Source: Sulfuricurvum sp. (GTDB lineage Bacteria; Campylobacterota; Campylobacteria; Campylobacterales; Sulfurimonadaceae). Taken from it: 64,000 nt of DNA. Below the pieces are notes generated by a model. It did no database searches. It saw nothing but the letters and a program-made list of their open reading frames with translations, and was not told where the DNA came from. Made by a program: the position numbers and the translations under genes. Shown one piece after another: positions 22,404-58,649 of the stretch (positions within the stretch are counted from its first letter, which is position 1; each line of letters begins with the position of its first letter). The stretch lies in NCBI RefSeq assembly GCF_030691015.1, contig NZ_JAUYFF010000013.1:4638-68637 (forward strand). Reading direction: 5' to 3'.

Positions 22404-22478
22404 GCGGGAATAGCTCAGTGGTAGAGCACAACCTTGCCAAGGTTGGGGTCGCGAGTTCGAACCTCGTTTCCCGCTCCA
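22404..22478 (+). tRNA. tRNA-Gly (anticodon GCC)
   Basis: Hand-folded cloverleaf. Acceptor GCGGGAA/TTCCCGC, anticodon loop CTTGCCAAG, T-arm GCGAGTTCGAACCTCGT, encoded CCA. Confidence 0.9.
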
Positions 22479-22481
22479 GAA

Positions 22482-22529
22482 TCTCAGTTGAAACATTGCT
22501 TTTTGATGTTTGAACTGAGATGTTTTTTT
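22482..22529 (+). terminator. Rho-independent terminator-like hairpin between tRNA-Gly and tRNA-Leu
   Basis: 15-bp stem TCTCAGTTGAAACAT / ATGTTTGAACTGAGA (one mismatch), 9-nt loop, then TGTTTTTTT. Confidence 0.55.
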
Positions 22530-22538
22530 CTACGTGAA

Positions 22539-22625
22539 GCCCGGATGGCGAAATCGGTAGACGCAAGGGACTTAAAATCCCTCGGTGGTAACACTGTGCC
22601 GGTTCAAGTCCGGCTCCGGGCACCA
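22539..22625 (+). tRNA. tRNA-Leu (anticodon TAA)
   Basis: Acceptor GCCCGGA/TCCGGGC, anticodon loop CTTAAAA, long variable arm, T-loop GGTTCAAGTCC, encoded CCA. Confidence 0.9.
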
Positions 22626-22632
22626 TCATGGT

Positions 22633-22706
22633 GGCGGCATAGCCAAGCGGTAAGGCATGAGCCTGCAAAGCTCTGATCCCCGGTTCGAATCCGGGTGCCG
22701 CCTCCA
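22633..22706 (+). tRNA. tRNA-Cys (anticodon GCA)
   Basis: Acceptor GGCGGCA/TGCCGCC, anticodon loop CTGCAAA, T-loop GGTTCGAATCC, encoded CCA. Confidence 0.9.
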
Positions 22707-22736
22707 GCATAGAAAAAGATAGCTTCATTTTTATAC

Positions 22737-22824
22737 GGGTCACTGGCAGAGTGGTCGATTGCACCGGTCTTGAAAACCGGCGAGGGTTAAACCTCCCAAG
22801 GTTCAAATCCTTGGTGGCCCGCCA
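22737..22824 (+). tRNA. tRNA-Ser (anticodon TGA)
   Basis: Acceptor GGGTCAC/GTGGCCC (one G-U), anticodon loop CTTGAAA, long variable arm, T-loop GGTTCAAATCC, encoded CCA. Confidence 0.85.
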
Positions 22825-22942: not shown

Positions 22943-23179
22943 ATGGAAACCCATTTTCAAAACAACCCGTTTAAAGCCTCATTGGATGCCGATAAAGAGT
23001 ATTGGTACTGCACCTGCGGACAATCGAGTACCTTTCCGTTTTGCGACGGAAATCATGAAGGAACCGGCAAAACACCGATCAAATTTTCTGAAGAGGTTGA
23101 AACCGATAGATGGTTATGTCGATGCGGACGATCCGGTCGTAAGCCCTACTGTGACGGATCGCATCAACAGGGAGGCTAA
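22943..23179 (+). CDS. CDGSH iron-sulfur domain protein (two CDGSH motifs)
   Basis: CTCGQSSTFPFCDGNH and CRCGRSGRKPYCDGSH. GAGGAG RBS upstream of the ATG. Confidence 0.85.
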   Translation: METHFQNNPFKASLDADKEYWYCTCGQSSTFPFCDGNHEGTGKTPIKFSEEVETDRWLCRCGRSGRKPYCDGSHQQGG

Positions 23180-24586: not shown

Positions 24587-25501
24587 ATGCCGCATCATCA
24601 CACTTCCCCTAAGGTATCCTTTACGACGATACTCAAATGGCAATTCTCTAAATCTTTTCGAAAACGGCGCACAGATCGATCTAACCTCCCCATCCTCTCT
24701 CAAGAAGCTCTTCCTGAGGGCGAATATGCTCTCTGGCTCGGACATGCATCGCTGTGGCTTAAAGTGGGAGAAACAACGGTAGCCGTCGATCCTGTTTTAG
24801 GAAATATCCCCCTCTACCGACGGCATAGCCCTCTTCCAATCCCAAAAGAACGCCTGCGTGCTGATGTAATCCTCATCACCCATGCCCACTATGACCATTA
24901 TGATAAATCTTCCGTTTTATTTTTATTGCAACAAAATCCAAATACGATCATTGTTGCCCCCGCTGGATTTTGGCGCTATCTCAAAGGAAAAATAGCCCGC
25001 GAACGGTGTTTTGAATTGGAGTGGTGGGAATCGGTTATGGTAGGAGAACTCTTCATCACCTTTGTCCCCTCAAAACATTGGAGCAATCGTACAAATATCG
25101 ATATGAATAAAGCATTATGGGGGGGATACGTCATCCAAAATAATAATCACACGCTCTATCATAGCGGTGACAGTGCGATGGGCGAGCATTTTAAAGAGAT
25201 AAAAGAGAGATTTGATATCAATGAAGCGTTTTTACCGATCGGAGCGTACCGACCTGAGCCGATCATGCGCCATTTTCATATTTCACCCCTCGAAGCACTC
25301 CAAGCAGCACACGATTTAGGAGCGAAAACTCTGATCCCGATTCATTATGGAACATTCAAACTCGCTGATGATACTTTAGATGAACCGATCGAATGGTTTG
25401 AAAAGCTGATCGGTACAAAAAAGTATCCCTTTGAATCTAAAATCCTCCGTGTCGGAGAGATTTATCGTTTTAAAACGACATCCACATTCAAATCAACCTG
25501 A
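24587..25501 (+). CDS. MBL-fold metallo-hydrolase (NAPE-PLD-like)
   Basis: ITHAHYDHYD (HxHxDH), HSGDS, and IPIHYGTF at the C-terminus. Confidence 0.8.
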   Translation: MPHHHTSPKVSFTTILKWQFSKSFRKRRTDRSNLPILSQEALPEGEYALWLGHASLWLKVGETTVAVDPVLGNIPLYRRHSPLPIPKERLRADVILITHAHYDHYDKSSVLFLLQQNPNTIIVAPAGFWRYLKGKIARERCFELEWWESVMVGELFITFVPSKHWSNRTNIDMNKALWGGYVIQNNNHTLYHSGDSAMGEHFKEIKERFDINEAFLPIGAYRPEPIMRHFHISPLEALQAAHDLGAKTLIPIHYGTFKLADDTLDEPIEWFEKLIGTKKYPFESKILRVGEIYRFKTTSTFKST

Positions 25502-25992
25502 TCGCGTACGACTAAAAAAACCATTTTCGGCGGAGTGATCCCAAAATCGGTCATTTTCATACTGCTTTTGACTTTGATACGGACTTTTGACGCTTCTTCG
25601 CTAACCGTCCCCTCAAAACTCATCGGTTTCGTAACACCGTGGAGATTCATTGCCCCTTTGAGGATGACGTTATCTCCCCCTTTAACCACAACCTCTTTGA
25701 CTTCAAACACCGCTTTAGGGAAAGTAGATGATTCCAATGTCTCTTGCATATTGGTATCACGCTTTTTATTATCACTAATCAAATCAGACATAGAGATTTC
25801 AATCGTCCCTTTTAACGTTGCGGGAGCCGCATCCATTGACAAATGCGATGTTGCTTTTTTTGCAGTCGGATCAATCGAGCTGTCTCCGAATACTTCGGTA
25901 TGTGCTTTTATACTTCCCGATTCAAAGCTCAAATTCCCCGCAAACGCAGAAGTAGCCAATAAAACCGCCGCCAAACTCACTATTTTTTTCAT
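25462..25992 (-). CDS. YceI-family periplasmic (polyisoprenoid/lipid-binding) protein
   Basis: Signal peptide MKKIVSLAAVLLATSAFA. YceI-like SDNKKRDTNMQETLESSTFPKAVF, LHGVTKPM. Confidence 0.8.
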   Translation of the reverse strand: MKKIVSLAAVLLATSAFAGNLSFESGSIKAHTEVFGDSSIDPTAKKATSHLSMDAAPATLKGTIEISMSDLISDNKKRDTNMQETLESSTFPKAVFEVKEVVVKGGDNVILKGAMNLHGVTKPMSFEGTVSEEASKVRIKVKSSMKMTDFGITPPKMVFLVVRDQVDLNVDVVLKR

Positions 25993-26942
25993 GTCAATCT
26001 CCTAAAATAAAATGGGTATACCAATGCAAAAAGAGTTAGAATAACTGCCGCTATCCAAATCTCATTGTGCAAAGCAATGCCGTTAGCTGCCGATGCCGCT
26101 ATCCAGCCGACACCGACCATCGATAATCCGATAAGACGTATATCCGCCAAACGTATCAGCGCTTGAAACAACAAAACATTATAATACGAAATGGCAATCG
26201 GATAGACAATAGCCAACAAAATCGGCTCTTCTATCCAATACAAAAGATAGCTCAGGACAAATAGAACCCAAATAAGACGGGTTTGGCTCATCAGCTCGCC
26301 TCCATAGCGAAAGGCGGCATAGACTCCCGCTAAATGGGCGGTGATAATAAGCAGTGTATACTGACTCCAAATATCCATACTTCCCGATCGGCTAAGGGTC
26401 TCAAAGAGTGCCGAATCGGCAAAAATCCAAAGCATCATCACCCCGAGCGTCGGCCAATGAAACGGTTTTTTTTCACTGGTGCGTGTCGATTTAAGCTTGG
26501 CAAAATATAACGCGACAATGGAGATAAAAGGAAAAAGAATCGCAATACTGCCGCGCGCTTCAAACGGATAGGTATAAAGAGCCGTTCCCACCGCATAGGA
26601 AATGGCCATCCCTACAGATAGCTGTAGCTTGCTCTGAGACTTGAAAATATACAGAAGCAACGGCGTTGTGTAACCGACGACAAAACCAAGCGCCAAGAGC
26701 ATTCCCAGCGAGTAGTTGGGATAAAACCATGAAATCATGATCTGAATACCGAATAAAAACGAAAGCTCATGTTTCAGCGCGTGATGACGCCAAAATGCAC
26801 TGAACAGTGCCCCTATCACTCCGCCGATGGGGAGGGTAAAGAGGTCGTGGATATGGGAATCAAATACTCCCACGACTCCCGTTTGTGCAATAAGGAGATA
26901 ATAAAGAAGCTGTGAGCTGAGGACAATGACGAGAAGATTCAC
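25989..26942 (-). CDS. Polytopic membrane protein (about 10 TM), unknown function
   Basis: 317 aa and hydrophobic throughout. 4-bp start/stop overlaps with both neighbours. Confidence 0.6.
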   Translation of the reverse strand: MNLLVIVLSSQLLYYLLIAQTGVVGVFDSHIHDLFTLPIGGVIGALFSAFWRHHALKHELSFLFGIQIMISWFYPNYSLGMLLALGFVVGYTTPLLLYIFKSQSKLQLSVGMAISYAVGTALYTYPFEARGSIAILFPFISIVALYFAKLKSTRTSEKKPFHWPTLGVMMLWIFADSALFETLSRSGSMDIWSQYTLLIITAHLAGVYAAFRYGGELMSQTRLIWVLFVLSYLLYWIEEPILLAIVYPIAISYYNVLLFQALIRLADIRLIGLSMVGVGWIAASAANGIALHNEIWIAAVILTLFALVYPFYFRRLT

Positions 26943-28501
26943 TCTTTACCTCGCAATACCAGCCAATAAAACAGGGCAAATAGCCCATCATAAAATCCCA
27001 CTAAAAGGGCAATTCCATCCATGGCACCCGCCATATAAAGTGCGACAAATACGGAAGCACAGAGGGCACGCACACTCGCGCTAAGTTCTGCAAAGCGGTG
27101 CGGATCGCTGTGGATTCCATACCAGTGCATCAATCCCGTCCCGATCATAAAAGTAAATACAATATACTCATACGTTCCGCTAAAGCTAAATCCCAGCAAA
27201 GGAAAAAGTGCCGCACCGCCGAGGATAAGGATTACCCCGCCCCCCGCATCACTCAAAAAACCGCTTAAATGGTAAAACTTCAGCGGTGAATCGAGACGGA
27301 ATCGAAGCCTCTCATAGGTAATCCAAAGTACCATTCCCACAAGTAACGCACCGATCAACGCTCTAAGGCTCAAGAAAGGCTCTACCACCCCGCTAAATCC
27401 TCCCGCTTCGATAATCCCTGCTATCGTGAGGGCAAGTGCCATCAGCGCCATCAACACCGTCCAAATCACCGCATACACACGACGGAACAGATTAGGCAAA
27501 AGATAATGCAAAATTGCGAGACCCATAAATGCCACCCCAAGCCCCATCGCGATATGAGCATGCCCCACTACCAAATCGTTACGGTGGATCAAAGCGCGGA
27601 TTTCAGGGATAAAGAGAAAATTCCCCTGAAGATCGACAAAAACAAAAGCACCGATGGAGAGAATCAGATACGGGTTTGTTTTAAAGTTCACCCCCGCATC
27701 ACGTAACCATACCCATAACAAAGGGAGGTACAACAGCGTTAAATACTGAAAAAACCACTCTTCACTGTAGCTCAAACTGTGAAAAAAATTACGGATAATG
27801 AGCGAGAGGGCATAGCCTGTGAGAGGAACGATCCACAACCAATGCCAGCGGGGTTTAAACTCCCCTGAGCCTACCAGCTTGATGAGAAGATAATAGATCG
27901 GGACCAGGGTAAAACTCATCCCCAAGGTATTATCCCCATGCGGCCCCACAAGGGTCTGCTCCACCTGACCGTAATCAGGGTTCATCAATACCACCAACGC
28001 GATGGGTGCTGCGATAACCGCCACAAGCGAGACATTAACCCACAAAGGGCGTTTTTCATAGCGGCGCAAGGCATCCACGAGGGCGAGGAGATAAAACAGA
28101 CCGCTAAAAGCGAGGAGAAAATTGAGCTGATAGGGGAAATCGTAAAACGGCAATCCCCGAATATTTCCAAACAACAATGCCATAGACATAAAGAGTAAAA
28201 AGAGGTTCCAAACAACGAAATAGCGGCGCAAATGCCCAATTGCCGTTTCGGACAGTACCCCCTCTTTTTGAAATAGGGCAAAGGGGAGCAGCGAGAGGAT
28301 CAACGGAAAAAATCCGTACAGCATCTGCGAGATATGAAGCGATCGTGCACGCTCGGGAGAGAGGAGTGTCATGGAACCGTCCAATCCCACCATCTCTACC
28401 GCATAGACCAACCCCGCAAAAAGTCCGAGAATCAGCCACAAAAAGGCGAGGGGAAGCTCATCATTTATGAATTTGTTTAACAATGCCATCCTCCATCTCA
28501 A
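26939..28501 (-). CDS. Heme-copper-oxidase subunit I (CcoN/NorB)-like polytopic membrane protein lacking the CuB His-His pair
   Basis: 520 aa with at least 12 TM. RSLHISQMLYGFF (TM2-type His), VGPHGDNTLGM, and VVGHAHIAMGLGV (HxH like the TM10 heme ligands GHVHxGALG of CcoN). No HH dipeptide anywhere. The start may be 28489. Confidence 0.45.
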   Translation of the reverse strand: MRWRMALLNKFINDELPLAFLWLILGLFAGLVYAVEMVGLDGSMTLLSPERARSLHISQMLYGFFPLILSLLPFALFQKEGVLSETAIGHLRRYFVVWNLFLLFMSMALLFGNIRGLPFYDFPYQLNFLLAFSGLFYLLALVDALRRYEKRPLWVNVSLVAVIAAPIALVVLMNPDYGQVEQTLVGPHGDNTLGMSFTLVPIYYLLIKLVGSGEFKPRWHWLWIVPLTGYALSLIIRNFFHSLSYSEEWFFQYLTLLYLPLLWVWLRDAGVNFKTNPYLILSIGAFVFVDLQGNFLFIPEIRALIHRNDLVVGHAHIAMGLGVAFMGLAILHYLLPNLFRRVYAVIWTVLMALMALALTIAGIIEAGGFSGVVEPFLSLRALIGALLVGMVLWITYERLRFRLDSPLKFYHLSGFLSDAGGGVILILGGAALFPLLGFSFSGTYEYIVFTFMIGTGLMHWYGIHSDPHRFAELSASVRALCASVFVALYMAGAMDGIALLVGFYDGLFALFYWLVLRGKE

Positions 28502-29093
28502 TAATAACGTCTGCGTAGTCGGCTATCTTTTTATCATGCGATGCTACGACAAATCCTGTTCCTGCGCGCGAAAACTCTCTAAATAATTCATACACCCCAA
28601 GTGCATTTTTACTGTCCAAATTCCCTGTCGGCTCATCCGCAAATACGACTGAGGGATGATTGATCAAGGCTCTGGCGATCGCGGCACGCTGACGCTCTCC
28701 TCCTGAGACCTCATCACTGTAGCGTTTACCCAGCCGCTCAATCCCCAGGCTTCCCATCAACGGATCGATCAATGTCGCATCCAATGCCGCCAACGCAATA
28801 TTTTCACGTAATGTCAAATAGGAGATAAGATAGTGAAACTGAAATACAAACCCTATGTTATGCTGACGAAAATGGTCAATGTTTCCGAGTTCATTCAATA
28901 GCTTACCGTCATATCGGACGCTTCCTAATGAGGGCTGAAGCAGCGTTGAGAGAATAGAGAGAACGGTTGTTTTCCCGCTTCCGCTCTCCCCGATAATGGC
29001 GGTAAAACTTCCCGGTAGAATCTCGATATCAACACCGTTCAATACTTTTTCATGGCCGTAAAAATGTTCCAGCCCACGTGCCTCGATTTTCAT
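28461..29093 (-). CDS. ABC transporter ATP-binding protein (MacB/LolD type)
   Basis: Walker A GESGSGKTT, signature VSGGERQR, Walker B VVFADEPTGNLD. Confidence 0.9.
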   Translation of the reverse strand: MKIEARGLEHFYGHEKVLNGVDIEILPGSFTAIIGESGSGKTTVLSILSTLLQPSLGSVRYDGKLLNELGNIDHFRQHNIGFVFQFHYLISYLTLRENIALAALDATLIDPLMGSLGIERLGKRYSDEVSGGERQRAAIARALINHPSVVFADEPTGNLDSKNALGVYELFREFSRAGTGFVVASHDKKIADYADVIIEMEDGIVKQIHK

Positions 29094-30169
29094 GCGCCAC
29101 CTCTTTGAATCAGACTCATCGGGTCGATACGGGAAGCATACACGGCAGGGAGCAAGGTTCCGAATAATGCCATCGTAACGGAGACGATAAAGACCTTAAT
29201 CATCAACGCTGCGGTTATCTCACCGTTGATGTAACCCTGAAACTTATCGGCATGCTCGATCATCTCCAAAATACCCAGCGAAGCCCCAAGGGCCACCGCA
29301 TAGGCGAGAATCGCGATAATCAACGTCTCACTTAAAAGCTTCACAATAATCGTTGTCGAAGAGAGCCCGATGGAACGCATAATGCCAAACTCCCCCTTAC
29401 GGTCATTCACCACCATACTCATCATGCTCACAATCCCCAGTATTCCCATCAAAAAGGCCATAGCTCCGATCACATCGGAACTGGTTTTGATGATCTTGAA
29501 CTGATTGTACGAATCGATAAAGCTCTCGGTCGTTTTTGCCTCAATGTCAGAGCTCAGGCTGTTGATCTGCTTAACAATCCCCTCGCTTTTCCCGAGGTCG
29601 TCCAAGCTGATCAAAAAGATAGAGGCACTTTTATGAAACAGTTCTCCCGCATCGGTGAGATTCATAACAACCCCGCCGTCTTCAAATCCGATACGGCTTT
29701 TAAAGACACCGCTTACGACAAACGTTTTTTTGGAAAGGACGATTTTAGTCGGTTTTTTGAGCGTTTCATAGATTTTTGATCCCAGCATTACTTCGCCCGA
29801 TTTAGGATAGGTACCTTGTTTGAGGAGATAGCTTTTATACCTGTTCTCGCTTGCTCCGTATATTCCGACAATCGGAAGAGGATCAACTGGTGCGGCACCC
29901 AAAATCAACGCGCTCGCCTCTTTAACCCCCTCCATCTTTTCTATAGAAACACTGAGAGAACGGTTAATATCACTGAAAAAAGTATCGGCAATCCCTTTTT
30001 GAGTGACAATAATATCACCGTCGGTTTTGAGCATTGCACTGTACATACTCACTACGCCACCCGAAATAGCGCTGATAAGAAAGATAGCGGCAATCGATAC
30101 GCTCATGCTGATAAAAATAAGGGCGGTTTTAAACCGGTTTTTACGAAGAGCTTTGATCGGTGTAATCAC
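29090..30169 (-). CDS. ABC transporter permease, FtsX/MacB type
   Basis: N-terminal TM, large periplasmic domain, and a C-terminal 3-TM FtsX domain (RKGEFGIMRSIGLSS, ASRIDPMSLIQ). Confidence 0.85.
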   Translation of the reverse strand: MITPIKALRKNRFKTALIFISMSVSIAAIFLISAISGGVVSMYSAMLKTDGDIIVTQKGIADTFFSDINRSLSVSIEKMEGVKEASALILGAAPVDPLPIVGIYGASENRYKSYLLKQGTYPKSGEVMLGSKIYETLKKPTKIVLSKKTFVVSGVFKSRIGFEDGGVVMNLTDAGELFHKSASIFLISLDDLGKSEGIVKQINSLSSDIEAKTTESFIDSYNQFKIIKTSSDVIGAMAFLMGILGIVSMMSMVVNDRKGEFGIMRSIGLSSTTIIVKLLSETLIIAILAYAVALGASLGILEMIEHADKFQGYINGEITAALMIKVFIVSVTMALFGTLLPAVYASRIDPMSLIQRGGA

Positions 30170-30624
30170 TGCTCAATCGCTTTTTTAAGTTCAGCGGCCG
30201 TTTCGATAAACTCCACTTTGGTCAAGAAATTTCCCCGAAATTTCATCACGGTGATCTTATCTTCCTGATATGGAAAATTAAGCCCCTGTACTTCGTCTTG
30301 AATCAAGAGTACCGTATGGGAATATTTTCGCATTTTCGGCAAAGCAAAACTCTCGGTGATAAATTTCGGCATCTGGCTGATATCGGCGACAAACGCCGCT
30401 TTATTTTTGGCTAAATACCCTTTTTCTTGAACGGTAAGGTATTCATTCACCGTCGCACCCGTCCCTTTTTCGAATGCCATAATCAGCGTTTTCGGCATCA
30501 TTTTAAGGGCAACGCGCTTGCCGAACTGATCACTCAAATCAAGCGGCATTACCGATTGGCCTACTTTATAGGGAGCGGCCCAGAGAGTTAATGTCACGAA
30601 TAGTAAAATGATAACCTTTTTCAT
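30166..30624 (-). CDS. Secreted redoxin-fold-like protein without cysteines
   Basis: Signal peptide MKKVIILLFVTLTLWA. LDLSDQFGKRVALKMMPKTLIMAFEK resembles the AhpC/TSA-thioredoxin fold entry strand, but the protein has no Cys. Confidence 0.4.
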   Translation of the reverse strand: MKKVIILLFVTLTLWAAPYKVGQSVMPLDLSDQFGKRVALKMMPKTLIMAFEKGTGATVNEYLTVQEKGYLAKNKAAFVADISQMPKFITESFALPKMRKYSHTVLLIQDEVQGLNFPYQEDKITVMKFRGNFLTKVEFIETAAELKKAIEQ

Positions 30625-30694
30625 AATAATCCCTTATACCTAATAATATGACGAAAGTATAGGTGAAAAAAGGATAATTGACGGTTAATAGAGT

Positions 30695-31690
30695 TTAATG
30701 GGTAAGTTTACTCAATACGTTTTCGAGTTTTGTATGCTGCTCGAGAGTGAAAAGAAACGTATCATCCATCACTTTATCCAAATGATTCATTTCGGTGAGG
30801 GTAATTCCGAACGGATCTTTTTTTGCCACTTTACTCCCCCCCGACCCAAGCACCACGTTATCTAGTTTTTTAGAGCTGTGACGGATAAAATAGGTCAAAA
30901 AGTAGCCGCCGGAGTGATCTTTTTCAATAGCGACGACAACTCGTGATGCGTTTGAACCGTTCCAGCTCAAATCAGGTGCAAGGATTTTAAAATCTTCAAC
31001 CGAGAGAAATCCGACATACACTTTCGTATAGATATCATGATAGCGCTGTGTCGCGGCACGACGGAAAAATTCTAAATCGATCGGATCTTTCCCGCGTAGG
31101 GAACGAAGCATCCACGAGAGGGTTGCATAGTATTTAAATGCCGCAACTTTCAACTCTTCCGCATGAGCGATTTTGCTGCTCTCGATCCGAATCATCGGGG
31201 CACGCTCGGACTTAGAGCTCAAACGTTCCAAAATATGGCGTGCGCTGTAAGGTTTTGTCAGCCATACCGACGCATACGGCGGCAAATCAGACGTTCCTGT
31301 CGCCCCTTCGTTGAGGACTAAAAGCGCCTTAACACTGTAACGGGGGAAAAGAACTTCGAGCAATGCCCGTTTTTTACGAAGCCGTTTTTTGAGATTGCTC
31401 ACCGATTTAACCAACGTCATCTCGACAAAATAGAGCTCTTTATCGGTAAAGAGAAGTCCGTCGAATTCACCGATCTCTTTGTGACGGGCACGGTAGATAA
31501 TCTGCCCTTTCCAGCTCACAGAGAGGGCATCACTTTGAGCGCGGGTACGGTGTTTATGAGGCCCTTTTATAATAAAGCTTTTGATGCGCGGCTCATTGGC
31601 GGCGTAGCGGAGAAGCTTTTCATAAATATAGTTCTCATATACCTCCCCCTCAAAAGAACGAAACGCACTGATGTACCCTTCGTCTTCCAT
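30695..31690 (-). CDS. Hypothetical protein; N-terminal NERD / PD-(D/E)xK-like segment (tentative)
   Basis: 331 aa. GEFDGLLFTDKELYFVEMTLVKS resembles the D...E-x-K core of NERD-type nuclease folds, but the spacing is atypical. The C-terminal 200 aa was not recognised. Confidence 0.35.
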   Translation of the reverse strand: MEDEGYISAFRSFEGEVYENYIYEKLLRYAANEPRIKSFIIKGPHKHRTRAQSDALSVSWKGQIIYRARHKEIGEFDGLLFTDKELYFVEMTLVKSVSNLKKRLRKKRALLEVLFPRYSVKALLVLNEGATGTSDLPPYASVWLTKPYSARHILERLSSKSERAPMIRIESSKIAHAEELKVAAFKYYATLSWMLRSLRGKDPIDLEFFRRAATQRYHDIYTKVYVGFLSVEDFKILAPDLSWNGSNASRVVVAIEKDHSGGYFLTYFIRHSSKKLDNVVLGSGGSKVAKKDPFGITLTEMNHLDKVMDDTFLFTLEQHTKLENVLSKLTH

Positions 31691-57543: not shown

Positions 57544-58649
57544 ATCCGCTCTTCCCACTGATTATAACCCTCTTTTTTTCGATGGTTCACTACCTTGGGT
57601 ATACGCGCATCGTTCGCCATTTGCATATAAAACCGCGCACCCGTACCGCACTCATGACTTTCCTGATCCTCAATATGGCGGGAATCATAGGCTATCTCTC
57701 AAGCCGTTATCTCCTCAGCCCGCCGAAACTCATTTATTTCATCCTCTCTCTGAGTATCGGTATCGGGTTTATCCTCTTTATGGGAATCATTCTATACGAA
57801 TTACTCCATCTATTGCAGCGGAATATCCCTTTTAACCCCGAAAAACGGATTTTTTTCAAACGTGCGACCGATATCGGATTTTTAGGCCTCGGAAGCGCTT
57901 ATCTGGGAGGCGGAATTATTGAGGGGTCCAAAGAACCTGTCGTAAAATTTGTCGATGTCAATCAAAACCGCTTCGGCGGAAAAACTTACCGAATCGTCCA
58001 AATTAGTGATATGCACATCGGCGGGTTGATTGATAGAGATTTTGTTGCCAAAAGTGTCTCTATGATCAATCACCTTAACCCCGATCTTATCGCCATAACA
58101 GGTGATTTATCCGATGCTCATATCGATGTTATCAAAGATGCTGTGGATGAACTGCGTCATCTCAAAAGCCGATACGGAACCTTTTATGTGGTAGGAAACC
58201 ATGAATATTTTCACTCATTGGAGACAACGGTTGCTTATGTGAAAACACTCGGAATCCATGTCTTGGAAAACAGCGCTTTAAAAATCGAAGATTTCTATAT
58301 TGTCGGAGTTTACGATCTTTTTGGCTTTCGTGCCCAAACCCATATCCCCGATATCGGGCATGCTTTTAAAAACATCCCCTCTGATGCACCTACACTCCTT
58401 TTAGTCCATCAGCCAAAGTATGTAGAATTTTTGGAAGGGTTCACCCCCTCATTGATTCTCAGCGGCCACACCCACGGAGGTCAAATTTGGCCATTTGACT
58501 CGGTGGTAAAATTAGTACAGCCTTACGTCAAAGGGATCTATCCCCTCGCTCCCAACCGCCATATTTATGTCAACAGCGGAATCGGCTTTTGGGGGCCTCC
58601 GATGAGACTGGGATCAGAAGCTGAAATTACCTGTATTTCGTGGTCGTAA
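57540..58649 (+). CDS. Membrane-anchored metallophosphoesterase (YkuE/YaeI-like)
   Basis: N-terminal TMs, then ISDMHIG, TGDLSD, GNHEY, GHTHGGQ. Confidence 0.85.
   Translation: MNPLFPLIITLFFSMVHYLGYTRIVRHLHIKPRTRTALMTFLILNMAGIIGYLSSRYLLSPPKLIYFILSLSIGIGFILFMGIILYELLHLLQRNIPFNPEKRIFFKRATDIGFLGLGSAYLGGGIIEGSKEPVVKFVDVNQNRFGGKTYRIVQISDMHIGGLIDRDFVAKSVSMINHLNPDLIAITGDLSDAHIDVIKDAVDELRHLKSRYGTFYVVGNHEYFHSLETTVAYVKTLGIHVLENSALKIEDFYIVGVYDLFGFRAQTHIPDIGHAFKNIPSDAPTLLLVHQPKYVEFLEGFTPSLILSGHTHGGQIWPFDSVVKLVQPYVKGIYPLAPNRHIYVNSGIGFWGPPMRLGSEAEITCISWS

Follow-up and report, generated by a model that had tools for sequence, protein, structure and literature searches.

A conserved gene cluster of Campylobacterota pairs a MacB-type ABC machine with a predicted copper-less relative of the haem-copper oxidases

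What system do six overlapping genes of a Sulfuricurvum sp. genome encode, when a first reading of their sequence could assign them to no pathway? The genes, here named g1 to g6 in 5' to 3' order, lie on the minus strand of a 64-kb stretch of contig NZ_JAUYFF010000013.1 (hereafter the window, to whose positions all coordinates refer), and they were originally predicted to form a redox- or haem-linked envelope system related to the accessory module of the P19/Fet iron-uptake system. We find in the Sulfuricurvum operon the form that an ancient and widespread cluster takes in Campylobacterota, the invariant pairing being that of a MacB-type ATP-binding cassette (ABC) machine with a haem-copper oxidase (HCO)-like haem protein devoid of the copper site. 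Instead of respiring oxygen, the cluster probably acts on envelope lipids, handling or protecting them. The original prediction holds in describing a conserved, uncharacterised envelope system with links to redox chemistry or haem and to lipids; a descent from P19/Fet is not supported.

Conservation and layout of the operon

A genome scan returned 199 loci of the g4 family, of which 80 were kept; 64 of these span at least 9 kb and constitute the well-flanked set. The core of the cluster was defined as five genes, encoding the FtsX, ABC, HCO-like, major facilitator superfamily (MFS)-like and YceI proteins. All five are present in 58 of the 64 well-flanked loci, and each junction is overlapping in 45-57 of the 58 complete loci. 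The cluster occurs in Sulfuricurvum, Sulfurovaceae, Sulfurospirillum, Arcobacteraceae and Sulfurimonas, with g4 identities of 43-60%, and its arrangement is far beyond chance; the gene set is kept together across Campylobacterota, as the prediction required. The order of the genes varies, although the same set is retained. Two units change place: g1 (found in 49 of the 64 loci) stands in front, behind YceI or behind the HCO-like gene, and the g5-g6 (MFS-YceI) pair lies upstream in some loci. A characterised pathway that would account for the set was sought by homology and found in no case, and the literature searched for the cluster contained no description of it.

The features of the Sulfuricurvum locus are the following.

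30166-30624, minus strand: g1, secreted 152-residue thioredoxin-fold protein without cysteine (AlphaFold2 and Foldseek).
29090-30169, minus strand: g2, MacB/FtsX-type permease with four transmembrane helices and a periplasmic MacB_PCD domain (Pfam).
28461-29093, minus strand: g3, ABC ATPase, nearest LolD and FtsE (Pfam, NCBIfam).
26939-28501, minus strand: g4, copper-less HCO-like protein with a DUF4345-like C-terminal domain (COX1 profile, hhalign).
25989-26942, minus strand: g5, compact 12-helix membrane protein of MFS fold (AlphaFold2, Foldseek).
25462-25992, minus strand: g6, secreted lipocalin-like protein of the YceI family, putative binder of polyisoprenoids or quinones (PF04264).
24587-25501, plus strand: convergent NAPE-PLD-like hydrolase of the metallo-beta-lactamase (MBL) fold, likely an accessory part (Lactamase_B_2, PDB match).
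30625-30694, minus strand: upstream gap and putative operon promoter (70 bp; the ribosome-binding site reads AAGGGA, and the -10-like hexamers are A/T-rich).

Re-derivation of all coordinates returned six overlapping minus-strand genes at 25462-30624, as had been reported. The overlap is 4 nt at each of the g1/g2, g2/g3, g4/g5 and g5/g6 junctions. For g3/g4, placed at 28501/28461, it amounts to 41 nt with the TTG start of g4 at 28501, and to 29 nt if g4 begins at the ATG at 28489, which is the likely true start judging from homologues that begin with MALLSKF. The 70-bp gap upstream of g1 is present as described; a consensus scan for promoters and terminators gave no signal above shuffled expectation, so the operon promoter is placed there by inference only. 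The 40-nt convergent overlap between the 3' end of the operon and the MBL gene is likewise real, and the tail-to-tail yceI/MBL overlap recurs with a length of 37-40 nt in the other Sulfuricurvum and Sulfurovaceae loci inspected.

The HCO-like protein and its sister family

The protein encoded by g4 scores narrowly above the cut-off of the COX1 family (PF00115; 36.7 bits, cut-off 34.8), so that a 12-helix transmembrane core is detectable by profile; this core resembles that of C-family enzymes and extends over approximately residues 17-400. CcoN is its sole PDB sequence match (6xkw best; 3mk7), and its score against the NCBIfam ccoN model is 22.5 bits against a cut-off of 583. A match in an S. 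kujiense metagenome-assembled genome is 95% identical. To locate the metal ligands, a reference sequence of P. stutzeri CcoN was rebuilt from a printed alignment and aligned to g4 by hhalign. In this alignment the three haem histidines of CcoN are kept (H56 of g4 corresponding to H60, H314 to H345 and H316 to H347) and are invariant across the g4 family and the aligned outgroup sequences; H306 corresponds in turn to H337. The metal site itself is replaced: GDNTLG of g4 pairs with GHNAVG of CcoN, putting D190 in place of the helix-VI CuB histidine H207; S242 stands at H258; H241 aligns with H257, but the position varies within the family; and I235 occupies the position of the cross-link tyrosine Y251, at moderate alignment confidence. 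Because the haem histidines align and the CuB ligands are replaced, g4 is identified from its sequence as an HCO homologue that would bind haem but lacks a CuB/FeB site; the three kept histidines are predicted to hold a low-spin and a high-spin b haem.

The C-terminal 110 or so residues of g4 match separate DUF4345-like proteins of 138-147 residues encoded in related clusters, and g4 is therefore a fusion whose C-terminal domain is predicted to comprise four transmembrane helices. Those related clusters came to light at the edge of the g4 family. Searched against 1.84 billion representative proteins, the g4 profile gave 74 matches, about six of them full length, and at the family edge the scores drop from 463 bits to no more than 48. 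The most divergent member of the family, P0364, still has an ABC gene overlapping its own. The first proteins past the gap (P0415, P0421, P0425 and P0427; 21-25% identity) belong to a family that shares the three haem histidines with g4 and has none of the CuB ligands, and this sister family aligns with the g4 family at an hhalign probability of 97.3% (E 2.6e-11).

A metagenome scan located 276 loci of such sister clusters, with G+C contents of 50-71%; gene counts were taken from the 39 long loci among them. The ABC gene is present in all 39, followed by FtsX (37), DUF4345 (36), MFS-FixO (30), YceI (28), polyprenyl synthase (28), a two-component system (19), a g1-like gene (15) and MBL (14). 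In one representative locus, L086, the order is YceI, polyprenyl synthase, FtsX/MacB_PCD, ABC, HCO-like protein, a 147-residue DUF4345-like membrane protein, a 435-residue membrane protein, FixO, response regulator and histidine kinase; L085 is a similar locus that also holds the MBL gene. The sister cluster comprises about 11 genes and is carried by GC-rich environmental bacteria (L085, L086, L093-L165). A hidden Markov model of g5 matches the N-terminal part of a FixO-fusion protein (L082) at 45.8 bits, and on this profile evidence g5 is homologous to the 435-residue sister protein and to the membrane domain of the FixO fusions. FixO, a CcoO-type haem c domain containing CXXCH, is either fused or adjacent to the MFS-like protein. 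The synthase resembles farnesyl- and geranylgeranyl-diphosphate synthases and adjoins yceI, and the two-component system is nearest the heavy-metal subfamily, under the curated cut-offs. In the sister homologues of g1 the CXXC-equivalent site is likewise free of cysteine, and a GMP...FALPKM+KYPH motif is shared.

The HCO scaffold, the fold at the centre of aerobic respiration and denitrification, hence includes a sizeable branch that lacks the catalytic metal site; two families make it up, with 199 genome and 276 metagenome loci. A recent survey, by contrast, reports full conservation of the three metal histidines in every HCO family but gNOR, which has Asp in place of one of them (PMC11214002). 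Homologues of g4 are publicly named 'cbb3-type cytochrome c oxidase subunit I', a probable case of systematic mis-annotation, and as a consequence of these labels metabolic reconstructions may count too many oxygen reductases, in sulfur-oxidising Campylobacterota as in other bacteria.

The g4 protein is probably not an O2- or NO-reducing terminal oxidase of known type, and we consider it rather unlikely that it is a new one, that is, a terminal reductase or detoxifier of a small molecule (NO, O2, H2O2 or a sulfur species) acting through a haem-only site on the HCO-like subunit, with the ABC, YceI, thioredoxin-fold and MFS-like proteins serving maturation or the delivery of a cofactor such as haem or a prenylated compound. 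The retention of the high-spin haem ligand in the HCO fold and the CcoO-type haem c entry domain of the sister clusters would suit such an enzyme, as would the plasticity of HCO active sites, since gNOR has Asp for His (PMC11214002) and g4 carries D190 at the helix-VI histidine; the sister farnesyl/geranylgeranyl-type synthase could even feed a prenylated haem. Yet g4 lacks the tyrosine together with two to three of the three metal histidines, and the substitute residues differ between the two families. Clustering and scanning of the recurrent neighbours revealed no haem O synthase and no nor, nos, nir or accessory gene, and known HCOs need no MacB-type ABC, YceI or MFS partner.

Partner proteins, accessory genes and kinship with Fet

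The domain calls originally made for the FtsX/MacB permease, the ABC protein, the HCO-like protein and YceI are confirmed by Pfam scores. The permease g2 exceeds the cut-offs of both FtsX (PF02687, 61.1 bits) and MacB_PCD (PF12704, 38.2 bits); its best NCBIfam match, lolCE, is reached at 56.1 bits, far under the cut-off of 362, and its PDB neighbours are Spr0695, YtrF, MacB and LolF. The ATPase g3 exceeds the cut-off of ABC_tran (PF00005, 104.9 bits) and scores 180.7 bits against LolD, under the cut-off of 307.75. Together they show the defining traits of a MacB/FtsX type VII ABC system, namely a four-helix transmembrane FtsX domain, MacB_PCD and a separate ATPase. Machines of the MacB/Lol type pull hydrophobic cargo from the outer leaflet onto a periplasmic carrier. 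A MacA-type membrane-fusion adaptor is encoded neither in the window cluster nor by any recurrent neighbour that was identified, not every neighbour having been scanned. Haem efflux of the HrtBA type was considered for g2 and set aside, the match to HrtB (7w78) being marginal (E 0.25).

The description of g1 as a redoxin-fold protein without cysteines is correct in its two structural elements, the thioredoxin fold and the complete absence of cysteine; the supposed loss of cysteines was not a recent one, for the sister-cluster homologues lack them at the same site. There is no Pfam or NCBIfam match to g1, and its profile found nothing among PDB sequences. Its AlphaFold2 model (predicted local distance difference test, pLDDT, 89.8) has a thioredoxin/ResA/Bcp fold, with 119 Foldseek matches in the PDB at E <=0.001 that include ResA, Bcp, FetE and TlpA-like proteins. 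A conserved F51-E52-K53-x-T55 stands at the CXXC-equivalent site and M85-P86 is kept at the cis-Pro position; g1 contains neither a redox-active CXXC nor a peroxidatic cysteine. A role as copper chaperone or importer was rejected, given that M43, M98 and H103, although conserved within Sulfuricurvum, are not conserved across genera.

For g5, predicted to have ten transmembrane helices, AlphaFold2 instead gives 12 (pLDDT 81.5). The best 50 Foldseek matches in the PDB are all MFS transporters, with TM-scores of 0.51-0.66, and no MFS sequence profile in Pfam or NCBIfam matches at E <=0.1. Copper import was rejected for g5, which has no conserved MxxxM/HxxxM motif. So was the name 'beta-carotene 15,15'-dioxygenase' that JGI gives to some homologues, there being no match to a Blh/BCD profile and the fold being that of the MFS. 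The last gene, g6, matches YceI (PF04264) at 69.8 bits (cut-off 23.7); its N-terminus, MKKIVSLAAVLLATSAFA, reads by eye as a signal peptide, and its PDB matches are 1y0g (YceI), PA0423 and 5ixg. YceI proteins bind polyisoprenoids or UQ-8 (PMC9113575, PMC8981238) and are found alongside cytochromes in extracytoplasmic electron transfer (PMC8981238).

OmpR-type response regulators and histidine kinases recur beside the cluster in other Campylobacterota, although not in this window, and they raise the alternative of a resistance system against copper or hydrophobic toxins under two-component control, in which the ABC, MFS and YceI proteins would expel or sequester the toxic compound, with the haem protein as sensor or accessory. 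Consistent with this, the two-component systems adjoining the cluster are CusRS-like in several lineages, YceI lipocalins sequester antibiotics (PMC9113575), and both the MacB and the MFS families include efflux pumps. We nevertheless regard it as quite unlikely: no membrane-fusion or outer-membrane partner was seen among the recurrent neighbours, g1 is without a conserved metal site of Met, His or Cys, g5 has neither MFS sequence motifs nor CcoA-type Met/His motifs, and the strictly conserved haem ligands and the FixO domain are left unexplained.

The convergent MBL gene, taken at first for a bystander, adjoins 40 of the 64 well-flanked loci, convergently or co-directionally, and a gene of the same family is present in 14 of the 39 sister loci. 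Its product matches Lactamase_B_2 at 124 bits and carries the metal motif HAHYDH (HxHxDH); the best PDB match is human NAPE-PLD (4qn9, E 2.5e-35), other MBL structures being matched at E 1e-10 or weaker. Because the adjacency recurs in Campylobacterota and the family reappears in the sister clusters, the protein is likely an accessory part of the system, with a predicted NAPE-PLD-like hydrolase activity. A second hydrolase, a YaeI/LpxG-like metallophosphoesterase, is encoded near the cluster in 15 of the 64 loci and inside it in Sulfurospirillum, Arcobacter and Sulfurimonas. In the window, a protein of this type is encoded at 57981-58646 on the plus strand, 27 kb from the Sulfuricurvum operon, and is 32-34% identical to the in-cluster version of those three genera. 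The idea that the two hydrolases are mutually exclusive replacements is weakened by this metallophosphoesterase elsewhere in the Sulfuricurvum window.

These hydrolases bear on another possibility, that of a route for the biosynthesis and export of an isoprenoid envelope lipid, leading from the synthase through a phosphodiesterase (MBL or metallophosphoesterase) and an MFS flippase to the MacB extractor and YceI, with the haem protein oxidising the lipid instead of relaying electrons. The sister clusters hold both the polyprenyl synthase and the NAPE-PLD-like hydrolase, the metallophosphoesterase is part of the cluster in the three genera named above, and an MFS fold with a Lol-like ABC suits a flip-and-extract path. 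The synthase is missing from the Campylobacterota clusters, however, the distance of 27 kb in Sulfuricurvum makes the metallophosphoesterase link a loose one, and the cluster has no conserved outer-membrane acceptor and no glycosyl- or acyl-transferase. On balance, we judge this route unlikely.

Kinship with Fet can be examined feature by feature. In C. jejuni, FetABCDEF lies beside fetMP and has two FtsX permeases, thioredoxins with CXXC and a FetA protein that carries DUF2318 and YHS domains (PMC10783030); every one of the defining features tested is absent from the present cluster. Ftr1/P19 is missing, as had been noted, from the neighbours identified in the window and in the 80 loci, although not every neighbour was scanned; identified in place of fetM and fetP were the MBL gene, an open reading frame (ORF) of 331 residues and an apparent AEC-type transporter in the window, and the MBL, metallophosphoesterase and two-component genes as recurrent neighbours, none of them an iron-uptake gene. 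No DUF2318 or YHS domain was detected, g4 matching COX1 alone and g5 no family above threshold. One FtsX gene and one ATPase gene are present, with no second permease in the pattern of fetB and fetC, and g1, being without cysteine, is no counterpart of the CXXC thioredoxins FetE and FetF. Nor were the HCO-like protein and YceI gained, as had been proposed, both being ancestral core parts common to the sister clusters.

Some likeness to FetABCDEF remains, in that both cluster a polytopic membrane protein linked to redox chemistry or metals with FtsX-type ABC genes and periplasmic thioredoxin-fold proteins, and g1 resembles FetE in fold, FetE being among its top fold matches. The shared parts list is superficial, and the match of g1 to the FetE structure (8t4c, TM-score 0.59) is no better than those to ResA or Bcp. 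The conserved partners are here the HCO-like, YceI, MFS-like and MBL proteins, and homologous clusters hold the HCO-like protein, YceI, polyprenyl synthase and FixO and no iron-uptake genes. That the cluster is an offshoot of the FetABCDEF module of P19/FetMP iron uptake is accordingly very improbable, and this derivation is already largely refuted.

Further features of the window lie on either side of the locus. The 331-residue ORF (30695-31690, minus strand) is immediately upstream of the operon on the same strand, has no Pfam or NCBIfam family match and is seen only in loci of the Sulfuricurvum type (34 of 80), and the resemblance of the other neighbour to AEC-type transporters was judged by eye. 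On the plus strand, a 78-residue ORF at 22943-23179 carries two CDGSH-type motifs, CTCGQSSTFPFCDGNH and CRCGRSGRKPYCDGSH, and by eye is likely a small CDGSH [2Fe-2S] protein. Four tRNA genes, for Gly(gcc), Leu(taa), Cys(gca) and Ser(tga), occupy 22404-22824 on the same strand; the long ORFs listed over this region are artefacts of the tRNA cluster.

Proposed function and comparison with known systems

The reading that we favor, with a probability of roughly 0.4, is by analogy that of a redox module handling isoprenoid lipids or quinones at the periplasmic face, in which a pair resembling BcnA-LcoA is joined by a Lol-like extractor. Such a module would sit on the periplasmic face of the inner membrane and handle an isoprenoid lipid or quinone there. 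The ABC machine would spend cytoplasmic ATP, in the manner of Lol, drawing menaquinone or another polyprenyl lipid from the outer leaflet, and the extracted ligand would be passed to YceI, to the thioredoxin-fold binder or to both. Docked on the MFS-like subunit, the two-haem HCO-like protein would relay electrons between the respiratory chain and the carried ligand, and in the sister clusters the MFS-like subunit would supply the CcoO-type haem c. The most likely role of the module would be to protect or repair envelope lipids under oxidant or copper stress. The isoprenoid link is strengthened because the polyprenyl synthase adjoins yceI in the sister clusters.

Several considerations weigh against this proposal. 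Each of its mechanistic steps is drawn from gene context. The hhalign probability with CcoN is 43% for the g4 family and 29% for the sister HCO-like family. D190 aligns with Ala/Ser and H188 with Thr in the sister family; active-site residues beyond the haem ligands thus differ between the families, and g4 could therefore be a mere electron wire or scaffold. The Campylobacterota clusters are without a polyprenyl synthase and without a haem c domain through which electrons could enter. The assignment of g5 to the MFS comes from a structural model, with TM-scores of 0.5-0.66, and the two-component systems of Arcobacter are nearest the heavy-metal/HprRS (CusRS-like) subfamily, under the curated cut-offs.

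That a haem protein is coupled with YceI, a polyprenyl synthase and an ABC machine of the mechanotransmitting type provides a testable handle on the role of YceI lipocalins, as well as on the periplasmic handling of hydrophobic redox carriers or damaged lipids. It is possible, if still doubtful, that a new HCO clade without copper or iron at the B site, together with an ABC extractor, an MFS-like protein, YceI and a thioredoxin-fold protein without cysteine, constitutes a new envelope machine; this may take the form of an ATP-loaded periplasmic shuttle of isoprenoid quinone that moves reducing power off the inner membrane.

Among known systems, the cbb3 oxidases supply the nearest relative of g4 in CcoN, with which it shares the 12-helix core, the three haem histidines and the equivalent of H337; in the sister clusters there is a CcoO/FixO haem c domain as well. 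The differences lie in the CuB ligands H207, H257 and H258, which in g4 have become D190, a non-conserved position and Ser, in the replacement of Y251 by Ile, and in the anchoring of sister-cluster FixO on an MFS-like 12-helix transmembrane domain. None of the six window proteins contains a FixO/CcoO domain or CXXCH motif, and ccoO, ccoQ and ccoP are absent from the window. The 'additional CcoN' of some Sulfurimonas (PMC4584964) falls in a group with oxidases of Aquificales, and its identity with the g4 family could not be established. Like gNOR and other recently described HCO families, g4 is a divergent HCO without the active-site tyrosine, and gNOR has Asp for one active-site His (PMC11214002), as g4 has in D190; the new NOR families, by contrast, have CuA-type second subunits (PMC11214002), whereas here two to three of the histidines are gone and the context is that of ABC and YceI genes, not of denitrification.

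With the lipoprotein extraction system LolCDE/LolDF-LolA the cluster has in common g2 and g3, nearest lolCE and LolD, and the lack of a MacA among recurrent neighbours, and YceI, as a soluble periplasmic beta-barrel carrier, could take up hydrophobic cargo. The differences lie in sub-equivalog scores, in a carrier that is YceI and not LolA, and in a cargo that is probably an isoprenoid rather than an acylated protein. The closest functional analogy is offered by BcnA-LcoA (yceI-yceJ), a YceI protein with a cytochrome b561 that forms an experimentally supported pair for the detoxification of lipid peroxyls, protecting envelope lipids (PMC9113575); in the proposed mechanism the cytochrome re-reduces a quinone bound to YceI (PMC9113575). 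A yceI transposon mutant of A. butzleri (PMC12811638) adjoins cusA and could not be tied to the cluster. By analogy with BcnA-LcoA, a secreted YceI would here be coupled genetically to a two-haem b-type membrane protein, but one of HCO fold and not of the four-helix b561 fold; further companions here are a hydrolase, a MacB-type ABC machine and proteins of MFS-like and thioredoxin fold. The parts of the cluster are in this way related to known kinds: the HCO superfamily, the YceI-cytochrome pairs and the type VII ABC systems.

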